38,926 nucleotides of DNA from Escherichia phage T7: the sequence record MZ375241.1. The stretch is one strand, 5' to 3'. Below the pieces are notes generated by a model that made no database searches, was not told the DNA's origin, and saw nothing but the letters and a program-made list of their open reading frames with translations. The translations under genes were made by a program, and so were the position numbers. The first letter of the stretch is position 1. Each line of letters starts with the position of its first letter. Below, piece by piece: positions 1,279 to 20,839 of the stretch.

Positions 1279-1409
1279 TGTCTACTACCAACGTGCAATA
1301 CGGTCTGACCGCTCAAACTGTACTTTTCTATAGCGACATGGGGCGGCGTGGCATAGACGAAAGGAAAAGGTTAAAGCCAAGAAACTCGCCGCACTTGAAC
1401 AGGCACTAG
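1278..1409 (+). pseudogene. 0.4: Gene 0.4 remnant: first ~21 codons of the FtsZ inhibitor gp0.4 fused to a 22-codon non-native tail
   Basis: ATG overlaps the ocr stop (taATG); translation [21 protein letters not shown] then GRRGIDERKRLKPRNSPHLNRH*; junction near 1340/1341. Confidence 0.7.
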
Positions 1410-7447: not shown

Positions 7448-8029
7448 TGGGACTGTTAGATGGTGAAGCCTGGGAAAAAGAAAACCCGCCAGTACAAGCA
7501 ACTGGGTGTATAGCTTGCTTAGAGAAAGATGACCGTTATCCACACACCTGTAACAAAGGAGCTAACGATATGACCGAACGTGAACAAGAGATGATCATTA
7601 AGTTGATAGACAATAATGAAGGTCGCCCAGATGATTTGAATGGCTGCGGTATTCTCTGCTCCAATGTCCCTTGCCACCTCTGCCCCGCAAATAACGATCA
7701 AAAGATAACCTTAGGTGAAATCCGAGCGATGGACCCACGTAAACCACATCTGAATAAACCTGAGGTAACTCCTACAGATGACCAGCCTTCCGCTGAGACA
7801 ATCGAAGGTGTCACTAAGCCTTCCCACTACATGCTGTTTGACGACATTGAGGCTATCGAAGTGATTGCTCGTTCAATGACCGTTGAGCAGTTCAAGGGAT
7901 ACTGCTTCGGTAACATCTTAAAGTACAGACTACGTGCTGGTAAGAAGTCAGAGTTAGCGTACTTAGAGAAAGACCTAGCGAAAGCAGACTTCTATAAAGA
8001 ACTCTTTGAGAAACATAAGGATAAATGTT

Positions 8030-8037: not shown

Positions 8038-8370
<333 letters not shown>

Positions 8371-8373
<3 letters not shown>

Positions 8374-8393
8374 TACGACTCACTATTAGGGAA
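8371..8393 (+). promoter_or_regulatory. T7 RNAP promoter phi2.5 (+1 A at 8388)
   Basis: taatacgactcactattagggaa; the A-initiating class II promoter. Confidence 0.85.
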
Positions 8394-8438
8394 GACTCCC
8401 TCTGAGAAACCAAACGAAACCTAAAGGAGATTAACATT

Positions 8439-9137
8439 ATGGCTAAGAAGATTTTCACCTCTGCGCTGGGTACCGCTGAACCTTACGCTTACATCGCCAA
8501 GCCGGACTACGGCAACGAAGAGCGTGGCTTTGGGAACCCTCGTGGTGTCTATAAAGTTGACCTGACTATTCCCAACAAAGACCCGCGCTGCCAGCGTATG
8601 GTCGATGAAATCGTGAAGTGTCACGAAGAGGCTTATGCTGCTGCCGTTGAGGAATACGAAGCTAATCCACCTGCTGTAGCTCGTGGTAAGAAACCGCTGA
8701 AACCGTATGAGGGTGACATGCCGTTCTTCGATAACGGTGACGGTACGACTACCTTTAAGTTCAAATGCTACGCGTCTTTCCAAGACAAGAAGACCAAAGA
8801 GACCAAGCACATCAATCTGGTTGTGGTTGACTCAAAAGGTAAGAAGATGGAAGACGTTCCGATTATCGGTGGTGGCTCTAAGCTGAAAGTTAAATATTCT
8901 CTGGTTCCATACAAGTGGAACACTGCTGTAGGTGCGAGCGTTAAGCTGCAACTGGAATCCGTGATGCTGGTCGAACTGGCTACCTTTGGTGGCGGTGAAG
9001 ACGATTGGGCTGACGAAGTTGAAGAGAACGGCTATGTTGCCTCTGGTTCTGCCAAAGCGAGCAAACCACGCGACGAAGAAAGCTGGGACGAAGACGACGA
9101 AGAGTCCGAGGAAGCAGACGAAGACGGAGACTTCTAA
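8439..9137 (+). CDS. 2.5: Single-stranded DNA-binding protein
   Basis: 232-aa ORF with acidic C-terminal tail ...DEDDEESEEADEDGDF. Confidence 0.95.
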   Translation: MAKKIFTSALGTAEPYAYIAKPDYGNEERGFGNPRGVYKVDLTIPNKDPRCQRMVDEIVKCHEEAYAAAVEEYEANPPAVARGKKPLKPYEGDMPFFDNGDGTTTFKFKCYASFQDKKTKETKHINLVVVDSKGKKMEDVPIIGGGSKLKVKYSLVPYKWNTAVGASVKLQLESVMLVELATFGGGEDDWADEVEENGYVASGSAKASKPRDEESWDEDDEESEEADEDGDF

Positions 9138-9557
9138 GTGGAACTGCGGGAGAAAATCCTTGAGCGAATCAAGGTGACTTCCTCTGGGTGTTGGGAGTGG
9201 CAGGGCGCTACGAACAATAAAGGGTACGGGCAGGTGTGGTGCAGCAATACCGGAAAGGTTGTCTACTGTCATCGCGTAATGTCTAATGCTCCGAAAGGTT
9301 CTACCGTCCTGCACTCCTGTGATAATCCATTATGTTGTAACCCTGAACACCTATCCATAGGAACTCCAAAAGAGAACTCCACTGACATGGTAAATAAGGG
9401 TCGCTCACACAAGGGGTATAAACTTTCAGACGAAGACGTAATGGCAATCATGGAGTCCAGCGAGTCCAATGTATCCTTAGCTCGCACCTATGGTGTCTCC
9501 CAACAGACTATTTGTGATATACGCAAAGGGAGGCGACATGGCAGGTTACGGCGCTAA
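9138..9557 (+). CDS. 2.8: HNH endonuclease-like protein (GTG start)
   Basis: 139-aa ORF; Cys/His HNH-type motifs (HRV...HSCDNPLCCNPEHL); paralogous to 7.7. Confidence 0.8.
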   Translation: MELREKILERIKVTSSGCWEWQGATNNKGYGQVWCSNTGKVVYCHRVMSNAPKGSTVLHSCDNPLCCNPEHLSIGTPKENSTDMVNKGRSHKGYKLSDEDVMAIMESSESNVSLARTYGVSQQTICDIRKGRRHGRLRR

Positions 9558-9987: not shown

Positions 9988-10442
9988 TGGCTCGTGTACA
10001 GTTTAAACAACGTGAATCTACTGACGCAATCTTTGTTCACTGCTCGGCTACCAAGCCAAGTCAGAATGTTGGTGTCCGTGAGATTCGCCAGTGGCACAAA
10101 GAGCAGGGTTGGCTCGATGTGGGATACCACTTTATCATCAAGCGAGACGGTACTGTGGAGGCAGGACGAGATGAGATGGCTGTAGGCTCTCACGCTAAGG
10201 GTTACAACCACAACTCTATCGGCGTCTGCCTTGTTGGTGGTATCGACGATAAAGGTAAGTTCGACGCTAACTTTACGCCAGCCCAAATGCAATCCCTTCG
10301 CTCACTGCTTGTCACACTGCTGGCTAAGTACGAAGGCGCTGTGCTTCGCGCCCATCATGAGGTGGCGCCGAAGGCTTGCCCTTCGTTCGACCTTAAGCGT
10401 TGGTGGGAGAAGAACGAACTGGTCACTTCTGACCGTGGATAA
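9987..10442 (+). CDS. 3.5: Lysozyme (N-acetylmuramoyl-L-alanine amidase) / T7 RNAP inhibitor
   Basis: 151-aa ORF MARVQFKQRESTDAIFVHCSATK... Confidence 0.95.
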   Translation: MARVQFKQRESTDAIFVHCSATKPSQNVGVREIRQWHKEQGWLDVGYHFIIKRDGTVEAGRDEMAVGSHAKGYNHNSIGVCLVGGIDDKGKFDANFTPAQMQSLRSLLVTLLAKYEGAVLRAHHEVAPKACPSFDLKRWWEKNELVTSDRG

Positions 10443-12312
<1,870 letters not shown>

Positions 12313-12340: not shown

Positions 12341-12553
12341 ATGTTCAAACTGATTAAGAAGTTAGGCCAACTGCTGGTTCGTATGTACAACGTGGAAGCC
12401 AAGCGACTGAACGATGAGGCTCGTAAAGAGGCCACACAGTCACGCGCTCTGGCGATTCGCTCCAACGAACTGGCTGACAGTGCATCCACTAAAGTTACCG
12501 AGGCTGCCCGTGTGGCAAACCAAGCTCAACAGCTTTCCAAATTCTTTGAGTAA
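12341..12553 (+). CDS. 4.3: Hypothetical protein
   Basis: 70-aa ORF. Confidence 0.8.
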   Translation: MFKLIKKLGQLLVRMYNVEAKRLNDEARKEATQSRALAIRSNELADSASTKVTEAARVANQAQQLSKFFE

Positions 12554-15471: not shown

Positions 15472-15828
15472 ATGAACGAAAGACACTTAACAGGTGCTGC
15501 TTCTGAAATGCTAGTAGCCTACAAATTTACCAAAGCTGGGTACACTGTCTATTACCCTATGCTGACTCAGAGTAAAGAGGACTTGGTTGTATGTAAGGAT
15601 GGTAAATTTAGTAAGGTTCAGGTTAAAACAGCCACAACGGTTCAAACCAACACAGGAGATGCCAAGCAGGTTAGGCTAGGTGGATGCGGTAGGTCCGAAT
15701 ATAAGGATGGAGACTTTGACATTCTTGCGGTTGTGGTTGACGAAGATGTGCTTATTTTCACATGGGACGAAGTAAAAGGTAAGACATCCATGTGTGTCGG
15801 CAAGAGAAACAAAGGCATAAAACTATAG
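15472..15828 (+). CDS. 5.3: Hypothetical protein
   Basis: 118-aa ORF with RBS aggagg. Confidence 0.8.
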   Translation: MNERHLTGAASEMLVAYKFTKAGYTVYYPMLTQSKEDLVVCKDGKFSKVQVKTATTVQTNTGDAKQVRLGGCGRSEYKDGDFDILAVVVDEDVLIFTWDEVKGKTSMCVGKRNKGIKL

Positions 15829-18523: not shown

Positions 18524-18823
18524 ATGGGTAAGAAAGTTAAGAAGGCCGTGAAGAAAGTCCCCAAGTCCGTTAAGAAAGTCGTTAAGGAAGGGGCTCGTCC
18601 GGTTAAACAGGTTGCTGGCGGTCTAGCTGGTCTGGCTGGTGGTACTGGTGAAGCACAGATGGTGGAAGTACCACAAGCTGCCGCACAGATTGTTGACGTA
18701 CCTGAGAAAGAGGTTTCCACTGAGGACGAAGCACAGACAGAAAGCGGACGCAAGAAAGCTCGTGCTGGCGGTAAGAAATCCTTGAGTGTAGCCCGTAGCT
18801 CCGGTGGCGGTATCAACATTTAA
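18524..18823 (+). CDS. 7.3: Basic Lys/Ala-rich virion (tail-associated) protein
   Basis: 99-aa ORF MGKKVKKAVKKVPKSVKKVVKEG... Confidence 0.8.
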   Translation: MGKKVKKAVKKVPKSVKKVVKEGARPVKQVAGGLAGLAGGTGEAQMVEVPQAAAQIVDVPEKEVSTEDEAQTESGRKKARAGGKKSLSVARSSGGGINI

Positions 18824-18836
18824 TCAGGAGGTTATC

Positions 18837-19229
18837 GTGGAAGACTGCATTGAATGGACCGGAGGTGTCAACTCTAAGGGTTATGGTCGTAAGTGGGTTA
18901 ATGGTAAACTTGTGACTCCACATAGGCACATCTATGAGGAGACATATGGTCCAGTTCCAACAGGAATTGTGGTGATGCATATCTGCGATAACCCTAGGTG
19001 CTATAACATAAAGCACCTTACGCTTGGAACTCCAAAGGATAATTCCGAGGACATGGTTACCAAAGGTAGACAGGCTAAAGGAGAGGAACTAAGCAAGAAA
19101 CTTACAGAGTCAGACGTTCTCGCTATACGCTCTTCAACCTTAAGCCACCGCTCCTTAGGAGAACTGTATGGAGTCAGTCAATCAACCATAACGCGAATAC
19201 TACAGCGTAAGACATGGAGACACATTTAA
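18837..19229 (+). CDS. 7.7: HNH endonuclease-like protein (GTG start)
   Basis: RBS aggagg then GTG; Cys/His motifs and C-terminal block paralogous to 2.8. Confidence 0.75.
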   Translation: MEDCIEWTGGVNSKGYGRKWVNGKLVTPHRHIYEETYGPVPTGIVVMHICDNPRCYNIKHLTLGTPKDNSEDMVTKGRQAKGEELSKKLTESDVLAIRSSTLSHRSLGELYGVSQSTITRILQRKTWRHI

Positions 19230-20839
19230 TGGCTGAGAAACGAACAGGACTTGCGGAGGATGGCGCAAAGTCTGTCTATGAGCGTTTAAAGAACGACCGT
19301 GCTCCCTATGAGACACGCGCTCAGAATTGCGCTCAATATACCATCCCATCATTGTTCCCTAAGGACTCCGATAACGCCTCTACAGATTATCAAACTCCGT
19401 GGCAAGCCGTGGGCGCTCGTGGTCTGAACAATCTAGCCTCTAAGCTCATGCTGGCTCTATTCCCTATGCAGACTTGGATGCGACTTACTATATCTGAATA
19501 TGAAGCAAAGCAGTTACTGAGCGACCCCGATGGACTCGCTAAGGTCGATGAGGGCCTCTCGATGGTAGAGCGTATCATCATGAACTACATTGAGTCTAAC
19601 AGTTACCGCGTGACTCTCTTTGAGGCTCTCAAACAGTTAGTCGTAGCTGGTAACGTCCTGCTGTACCTACCGGAACCGGAAGGGTCAAACTATAATCCCA
19701 TGAAGCTGTACCGATTGTCTTCTTATGTGGTCCAACGAGACGCATTCGGCAACGTTCTGCAAATGGTGACTCGTGACCAGATAGCTTTTGGTGCTCTCCC
19801 TGAGGACATCCGTAAGGCTGTAGAAGGTCAAGGTGGTGAGAAGAAAGCTGATGAGACAATCGACGTGTACACTCACATCTATCTGGATGAGGACTCAGGT
19901 GAATACCTCCGATACGAAGAGGTCGAGGGTATGGAAGTCCAAGGCTCCGATGGGACTTATCCTAAAGAGGCTTGCCCATACATCCCGATTCGGATGGTCA
20001 GACTAGATGGTGAATCCTACGGTCGTTCGTACATTGAGGAATACTTAGGTGACTTACGGTCCCTTGAAAATCTCCAAGAGGCTATCGTCAAGATGTCCAT
20101 GATTAGCTCTAAGGTTATCGGCTTAGTGAATCCTGCTGGTATCACCCAGCCACGCCGACTGACCAAAGCTCAGACTGGTGACTTCGTTACTGGTCGTCCA
20201 GAAGACATCTCGTTCCTCCAACTGGAGAAGCAAGCAGACTTTACTGTAGCTAAAGCCGTAAGTGACGCTATCGAGGCTCGCCTTTCGTTTGCCTTTATGT
20301 TGAACTCTGCGGTTCAGCGTACAGGTGAACGTGTGACCGCCGAAGAGATTCGGTATGTAGCTTCTGAACTTGAAGATACTTTAGGTGGTGTCTACTCTAT
20401 CCTTTCTCAAGAATTACAATTGCCTCTGGTACGAGTGCTCTTGAAGCAACTACAAGCCACGCAACAGATTCCTGAGTTACCTAAGGAAGCCGTAGAGCCA
20501 ACCATTAGTACAGGTCTGGAAGCAATTGGTCGAGGACAAGACCTTGATAAGCTGGAGCGGTGTGTCACTGCGTGGGCTGCACTGGCACCTATGCGGGACG
20601 ACCCTGATATTAACCTTGCGATGATTAAGTTACGTATTGCCAACGCTATCGGTATTGACACTTCTGGTATTCTACTCACCGAAGAACAGAAGCAACAGAA
20701 GATGGCCCAACAGTCTATGCAAATGGGTATGGATAATGGTGCTGCTGCGCTGGCTCAAGGTATGGCTGCACAAGCTACAGCTTCACCTGAGGCTATGGCT
20801 GCTGCCGCTGATTCCGTAGGTTTACAGCCGGGAATTTAA
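19229..20839 (+). CDS. 8: Portal (head-tail connector) protein
   Basis: 536 aa from MAEKRTGLAEDGAKSVYERL; six-frame ORF starts 5 codons upstream. Confidence 0.95.
   Translation: MAEKRTGLAEDGAKSVYERLKNDRAPYETRAQNCAQYTIPSLFPKDSDNASTDYQTPWQAVGARGLNNLASKLMLALFPMQTWMRLTISEYEAKQLLSDPDGLAKVDEGLSMVERIIMNYIESNSYRVTLFEALKQLVVAGNVLLYLPEPEGSNYNPMKLYRLSSYVVQRDAFGNVLQMVTRDQIAFGALPEDIRKAVEGQGGEKKADETIDVYTHIYLDEDSGEYLRYEEVEGMEVQGSDGTYPKEACPYIPIRMVRLDGESYGRSYIEEYLGDLRSLENLQEAIVKMSMISSKVIGLVNPAGITQPRRLTKAQTGDFVTGRPEDISFLQLEKQADFTVAKAVSDAIEARLSFAFMLNSAVQRTGERVTAEEIRYVASELEDTLGGVYSILSQELQLPLVRVLLKQLQATQQIPELPKEAVEPTISTGLEAIGRGQDLDKLERCVTAWAALAPMRDDPDINLAMIKLRIANAIGIDTSGILLTEEQKQQKMAQQSMQMGMDNGAAALAQGMAAQATASPEAMAAAADSVGLQPGI

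Follow-up and report, generated by a model that had tools for sequence, protein, structure and literature searches.

Genes 2.8 and 7.7 encode paralogous HNH-type proteins

Two small HNH-type genes lie on the plus strand of the stretch of DNA analysed here, the 38,926-nt record MZ375241.1 of Escherichia phage T7 (hereafter the window). Gene 2.8 (9138..9557, +, 139 aa) opens with a GTG placed directly after the TAA of gene 2.5, and gene 7.7 (18837..19229, +, 130 aa), which has the same architecture, opens with a GTG 5 nt after an AGGAGG. Both ORFs agree with the annotation of V01146 and NC_001604, and the GTG starts that an earlier note on this DNA had given for them were borne out. Neither gene differs from V01146 by a single base, i.e. 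both are wild type, and a search against the same reference for signs of degeneration (frameshifts, lost catalytic residues, substitutions) revealed none, the conserved residues being intact. The two products are identical in sequence to gp2.8 (NP_041971) and gp7.7 (NP_041994) of RefSeq NC_001604, where the same genes already carry the labels 'endonuclease' and 'HNH endonuclease'.

The two proteins are paralogues. BLASTP aligned gp2.8 with gp7.7 at 64/134 identities (48%, E 2e-36), and the alignment covered all three sequence blocks from which the earlier note had proposed their similarity. The HNH assignment made in the same note was upheld by profile search, in which gp7.7 scored 49.6-49.8 bits against Pfam HNH_3 (PF13392, gathering cut-off 24.8 bits) and gp2.8 scored 26.1 bits, a marginal match lying 1.3 bits above the cut-off. 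With the zf-His_Me_endon model, which describes the I-PpoI zinc loop, gp2.8 gave 26.2 bits, and the gp2.8 and gp7.7 matches to this model both fall below the Pfam cut-off. Both proteins are assigned to PHROG 59.

A single database search with gp7.7 yielded 35 homologues, headed by 'gene 7.7 [Escherichia phage T7]'; PF13392 is present in nearly all of them, and they formed the basis of a 35-sequence alignment. The residue pairs found to be invariant or nearly so (gp7.7/gp2.8) are C4/C18, H29/H45, R30/R46, H48/H59, C50/C61, D51/D62, N52/N63, C55/C66, H60/H71, N69/N80 and R78/R89. Among them, the catalytic His (H59 of gp2.8, H48 of gp7.7) and the metal-binding Asn (N80 and N69, respectively) are invariant in 35/35 aligned homologues, and the set includes a Cys-Cys-Cys-His zinc site, which we take to resemble the first zinc site of I-PpoI. 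Both proteins conform to the beta-beta-alpha-metal fold of the His-Me finger nucleases. Two confident domains are separated by a low-pLDDT linker at residues ~80-90, and the C-terminal helices 91-122 match the helix-turn-helix (HTH) domains of transposases, GcrA and CENP-B, in agreement with the HTH-like C-terminal segment noticed earlier. We assign to gp2.8 and gp7.7 an architecture consisting of an N-terminal HNH_3 nuclease domain, a flexible linker and a C-terminal three-helix HTH DNA-binding domain.

In overall layout the two proteins correspond to I-HmuI (PDB 1U3E), a homing endonuclease of the HNH type from Bacillus phage SPO1, although I-HmuI is intron-encoded and has 174 aa, whereas gp2.8 and gp7.7 are free-standing, shorter and equipped with the Cys3His zinc site; I-HmuI was not detectable by sequence search. 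The His-Cys box enzyme I-PpoI (PDB 1A73) differs in possessing a second zinc site, which is absent in gp2.8 and gp7.7, and in being a nuclear intron enzyme that forms a dimer and lacks the HTH that the phage proteins carry. A literature search for nuclease or homing assays of gp2.8 or gp7.7 found none, and it is by inference that we speak of their nuclease activity, target sites and homing.

Relationship of gp3.8 to gp2.8 and gp7.7

T7 gp3.8 (NP_041974) resembles the two proteins in that it has an HNH_3 domain, is free-standing and dispensable, and is encoded directly ahead of gene 4, which is essential. A recent preprint groups 2.8, 7.7 and 3.8 as the 'three homing endonucleases' of T7 (bioRxiv 10.1101/2025.09.07.674715), and the earlier note had likewise placed 3.8 in the same family. 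The part of this claim that stands is the shared catalytic domain family, since gp3.8 scores 56 bits against HNH_3, above the cut-off. Full-length homology and a common architecture were not found: gp3.8 can be aligned to gp2.8 and gp7.7 over ~50 residues only (E 4e-7 and 5e-11; 34-41% identity), its identity to them in a MAFFT alignment is 22-24%, and its best PHROGs are 4578 and 99, versus PHROG 59 for the other two. The HNH core of gp3.8 lies at the N-terminus without the CxEW...GYG lead-in of gp2.8 and gp7.7, the zinc ligands are replaced (IDHIDGNPLNDALDNL versus HxCDNPxCxNxxHL in 2.8/7.7), and in place of the HTH tail there is another C-terminal domain, ending in ...ELHGQFARF, a tail common to the gp3.8 of phage 13a. 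These comparisons set 3.8 apart from 2.8 and 7.7 as a separate HNH sub-lineage, with kinship at the level of the catalytic domain only.

Gene 5.3 (15472..15828, +), which is retained in the window, was considered as a fourth HNH member and rejected. Its product is PD-(D/E)XK-type nuclease-like, matching PF11645 PDDEXK_5 with 42.1 bits, and it gave no HNH match and no BLASTP similarity to gp3.8.

The window derives from a genome-reduction experiment

A 12-kb slice around 2.8 matched phage T7 (V01146 / NC_001604) at 100% identity in two pieces. When the whole window was compared with V01146 by BLAST, four collinear blocks were obtained, and the window therefore carries three deletions; it equals V01146 minus 563, 156 and 292 bp, with ~15 substitutions besides. 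The 563-bp deletion (T7 1342-1904) removes 0.5 and 0.6A entirely, together with most of 0.6B and the end of 0.4. The 156-bp deletion (T7 7608-7763; window 7044|7045) is exactly the gene 1.4 CDS from ATG to stop, and the 292-bp deletion (T7 11254-11545; window 10534|10535) lies within gene 3.8.

From base 1 to base 12341, the window and the record MZ375243 ("Mutant Escherichia phage T7 clone T7_60L") are 100% identical, and all three deletion junctions (0.4-0.6, 1.4 and 3.8) as well as the early SNPs are consequently common to both. Beyond base 12341, T7_60L has an extra 198-bp deletion in gene 4.3 and eight mismatches to the window; gene 4.3, lost from T7_60L, is kept in the window. Sister MZ3752xx records are titled similarly (T7_xxL/S), and one of them, T7_50S (MZ375242), still has 3.8 and is thereby excluded as the identity of the window. 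These names conform to the clone naming (transfer number plus L/S plaque) of the CRISPR/Cas9 iterative genome reduction of T7 (CiPGr) described by Yuan et al. (NAR 2022, PMC9825161), a method that combines Cas9 spacers with templates of 2 x 50-bp homology and aims at deleting whole non-essential genes. We hold with high confidence that the window is a laboratory T7 derivative from this CRISPR/Cas9 reduction and a sibling of T7_60L, in which 2.8 and 7.7 persist as unaltered free-standing genes of the homing-endonuclease type. From the order of the accession numbers it is probably clone T7_50L.

Other changes in the window were also recorded. The excision of gene 1.4 alters the first three bases of the phi1.5 promoter from TAA to TTT, and the edit is base-precise and designed-looking. 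An imperfect 12-bp direct repeat, GGTGCGCTGTGGC / GGGCGGCGTGGC, lies at the 563-bp deletion (window 1341-1352), which looks spontaneous and fits the large gp0.3-0.6 losses that Yuan et al. describe as undesigned. All ten substitutions checked within coding regions are nonsynonymous (window 3158, 16909, 18560, 23674, 25232, 32008, 33056, 33161, 33328 and 34252), falling in genes 1, 6, 7.3, 11, 12, 16 (four) and 17 (K214E), and 7/10 are in tail, tail-fibre or internal-core genes, which suggests adaptation to the K-12 MG1655 host in serial transfer. An A>G change at window 405, the annotated +1 of T7 promoter phiOL, converts TATAAGGAGA to the consensus TATAGGGAGA; it is also present in T7_60L and is probably a promoter-up mutation.

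The gene 3.8 deletion leaves a remnant fused to gene 4A

The earlier note had described gene 3.8 as deleted. This is correct insofar as 292 bp are missing, but the loss is not total: a remnant (10506..10579, +) persists, in which the 5′ 29 nt of the gene (10506-10534) are joined to its last 45 nt (10535-10579). Upstream of the remnant, the T7 promoter phi3.8 (10441..10463, +; taattgaactcactaaagggaga), annotated at T7 11180, which corresponds to window 10461, is retained. The junction generates a fusion ORF (10506..12254, +) consisting of 3.8 codons 1-9, seven linker codons and the full-length gene 4A primase/helicase, all in frame. The predicted fusion product is a primase/helicase with a 16-residue N-terminal extension, encoded behind the intact phi3.8 and the 3.8 RBS, while the native 4A RBS and ATG (10554) are kept inside the fusion ORF. 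The depositors of MZ375243 annotated the long form ('DNA primase/helicase 10506-12254').

An 80-bp probe spanning the 3.8 junction hit 39 records at an identity of at least 99%. Among the matches listed (30 of 39), all were MZ3752xx T7 mutant clones with a 100% match, and no natural isolate with the 3.8 deletion was found among them. Because the junction is common to T7_60L and the other CRISPR genome-reduction clones, the 3.8 deletion is a laboratory event, and the absence of 3.8 from this genome says nothing on its natural loss.

Patchy distribution among natural relatives

Orthologues at 60-90% or 60-95% identity were found in 107 records for gp3.8, 18 for gp2.8 and 6 for gp7.7, so that natural relatives conserve 3.8 more widely than either of the other two. 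The annotated ORFs of phiA1122, 13a and T3 were compared with those of T7 by MAFFT alignment. In phiA1122, 3.8 (100% amino-acid identity) and 7.7 (99%) are present and 2.8 is absent; in 13a, 2.8 is absent, the '3.8' is divergent (30%), and 7.7 is 52% identical to T7 gp7.7, which makes it no closer than T7's own gp2.8 (54%); in T3, all three genes are absent. Homologues of 2.8 and 7.7 are scattered over many genome positions across other Autographiviridae, and both genes show the presence/absence polymorphism with clean boundaries by which homing-endonuclease genes are recognized. Such slot-by-slot, patchy turnover is the pattern expected of mobile free-standing homing-endonuclease genes.

Further nuclease genes were seen in these phages. 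One is an additional HNH-HTH gene in phiA1122 (8369-8827), of the 2.8/7.7 type (38-45% identity), which lies between genes 3 and 3.5, a position unoccupied in T7. The content of the 5.3 slot, which follows the DNA polymerase gene, varies: T7 has a PD-(D/E)XK-type gene there, T3 has an HNH endonuclease gene, and phiA1122 and 13a have none, and 13a carries an intron-borne HNH gene inside gene 5. The same genomic slots are in this way occupied by different nuclease families.

Seating of 2.8 and 7.7 on the starts of genes 3 and 8

The region between genes 2.5 and 3 reads ...TTCTAA GTG GCT GGC... in phiA1122 and 13a, with gene 3 starting at this GTG, and ...TTCTAA GTG GAA CTG... in T7, with 2.8 starting at it (window 9135-9140). 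The T7 sequence resumes ~420 bp further on with GGGAGGCGAC ATG GCA GGT, which supplies gene 3 with a replacement RBS and start; the T7 gene accordingly has an ATG start and its own GGGAGG within the 3′ end of 2.8 (window 9528-9540). In the alignment, relatives without 2.8 display a clean gap of ~420 bp that runs from TAAGTGG to the gene 3 start, from which it follows that the GTG of 2.8 occupies the position of the gene 3 GTG in these relatives. The RBS that serves this gene 3 GTG in phiA1122 and 13a is used by 2.8 in T7.

At the other locus, the AGGAGG before the 7.7 GTG corresponds to the Shine-Dalgarno sequence of T3 gene 8, and the stop of 7.7 shares 1 nt with the ATG of gene 8 (TAATG). 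The 9-mer ACATTTAAT occurs twice in the 38.9-kb window (0.25 copies expected), at 18816-18824 and 19222-19230, the 3′ ends of genes 7.3 and 7.7, respectively. Since these are the only two copies, a 9-bp direct repeat brackets the unit made up of the RBS and 7.7, and it may be a trace of the insertion or a repeat through which the unit can be lost precisely. The anatomy of both insertions fits that of a selfish gene inserted with minimal harm to its neighbours, and the start-site insertions account for the GTG starts of 2.8 and 7.7 without invoking a property of the family.

We also considered 'start-site capture', in which 2.8 and 7.7 couple expression of the downstream genes (Holliday-junction resolvase and portal) to the selfish gene and so become harder to lose than 3.8 or 5.3. 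We regard this as doubtful; if true, it might explain why clone T7_220S keeps 2.8 and 7.7 after 220 rounds of CRISPR-driven reduction.

Origin of the 3.8 deletion

The earlier note had concluded from this genome that the family is partly dispensable and is being lost. Dispensability was confirmed in the laboratory, where CiPGr mutants, a triple 2.8/7.7/3.8 knockout (bioRxiv 10.1101/2025.09.07.674715) and a T7-B chassis without gp3.8, gp5.3 and gp7.7 (PMC12153263) are all viable. Loss of gp7.7 was reported in CiPGr populations (PMC9825161), and T7_220S has 2.8 and 7.7 and no longer has 3.8, 4.3-4.7 and 5.3. In the PhageMaP essentiality preprint (PMC11482910), searched by gene name, none of these genes is mentioned.

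The second half of that conclusion, that a three-member T7 HNH family is decaying in nature and was caught here after a natural loss of 3.8, did not survive. It has in its favour that 3.8 is truly missing, that all three genes can be dispensed with in the laboratory and that HNH genes are patchy among relatives. Yet the 3.8 junction recurs in named clones of a CRISPR deletion experiment, the gene 1.4 CDS has been cut out to the base in the same genome, and 2.8 and 7.7 are 100% wild type, free of any substitution. The survey of relatives points the opposite way from loss, because natural phages retain 3.8 more often than 2.8 or 7.7 and phiA1122 encodes a gp3.8 100% identical to that of T7. Given the laboratory provenance, natural decay is effectively refuted, and we consider it extremely improbable.

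How the deletion arose within the experiment is a separate matter. The deletion could have arisen spontaneously as a CRISPR-escape event and then swept through the population, given that undesigned deletions and CRISPR-escape mutations are on record for CiPGr (PMC9825161), the removal of the CDS is only partial, and the 0.4-0.6 deletion of the window sits at a repeat, as a spontaneous event would. Such an origin is unlikely, however, considering that the 3.8 junction (T7 11253|11546) has no microhomology, that the deletion leaves untouched exactly the gene 4A RBS and start, and that the later 4.3 deletion in T7_60L likewise keeps the last few bases before the next gene. Yuan et al. state that regulatory elements were avoided in the design, and one identical junction is found in 39 records sampled across many transfers. 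The 3.8 deletion is probably a designed laboratory edit directed by a homology template.

Proposed homing and possible anti-defence roles of gp2.8 and gp7.7

The reading we prefer for 2.8 and 7.7 is that of free-standing homing-endonuclease-type genes seated between an upstream stop or RBS and a downstream start (gene 3 and gene 8, respectively). In a mixed infection, the protein would bind the genome of a relative lacking the gene through its HTH domain and nick or cut it, and recombinational repair would then copy the gene into the cut genome.

A different possibility is domestication: instead of being selfish homing nucleases, gp2.8 and gp7.7 may now serve the phage by binding DNA or countering defences, for example by hiding DNA ends from sensors of the GAPS4 type, and may be kept because of this benefit. 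Recent work lends it some weight: wild-type T7 outcompetes the triple knockout only if the GAPS4 defence is active, and catalytically dead T7 gp3.8 H34A and bas24_0090 H77A still block GAPS4, so that attenuation of GAPS4 by the T7 homing endonucleases is independent of catalysis (bioRxiv 10.1101/2025.09.07.674715). Retention of 2.8 and 7.7 in T7_220S after 220 genome-reduction transfers would also be in line with a benefit. The catalytic and zinc-ligand residues, however, are all invariant in both proteins and their homologues, which argues for a maintained nuclease function; the preprint pools the contributions of 2.8 and 7.7 without separating them; and the patchy distribution of the two genes fits mobility. 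Domestication in place of homing is on balance somewhat unlikely, and a defence-related benefit would add to the homing explanation, with which it is compatible.

Implications

It is established, and already annotated and published, that T7 has several small HNH homing-endonuclease-like genes that are dispensable in the laboratory and patchily distributed. To this the present analysis makes small additions, namely the split of the 3.8 sub-lineage from 2.8 and 7.7, the nucleotide-level seating of the latter on the starts of genes 3 and 8, and the 3.8′-4A fusion ORF. The case also serves as a caution, in that a deletion in a database genome was taken for ongoing evolution although it had been engineered in a laboratory clone. 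A possible benefit that the HNH genes may bring to T7 is the attenuation of GAPS4, as already put forward in the 2025 preprint.
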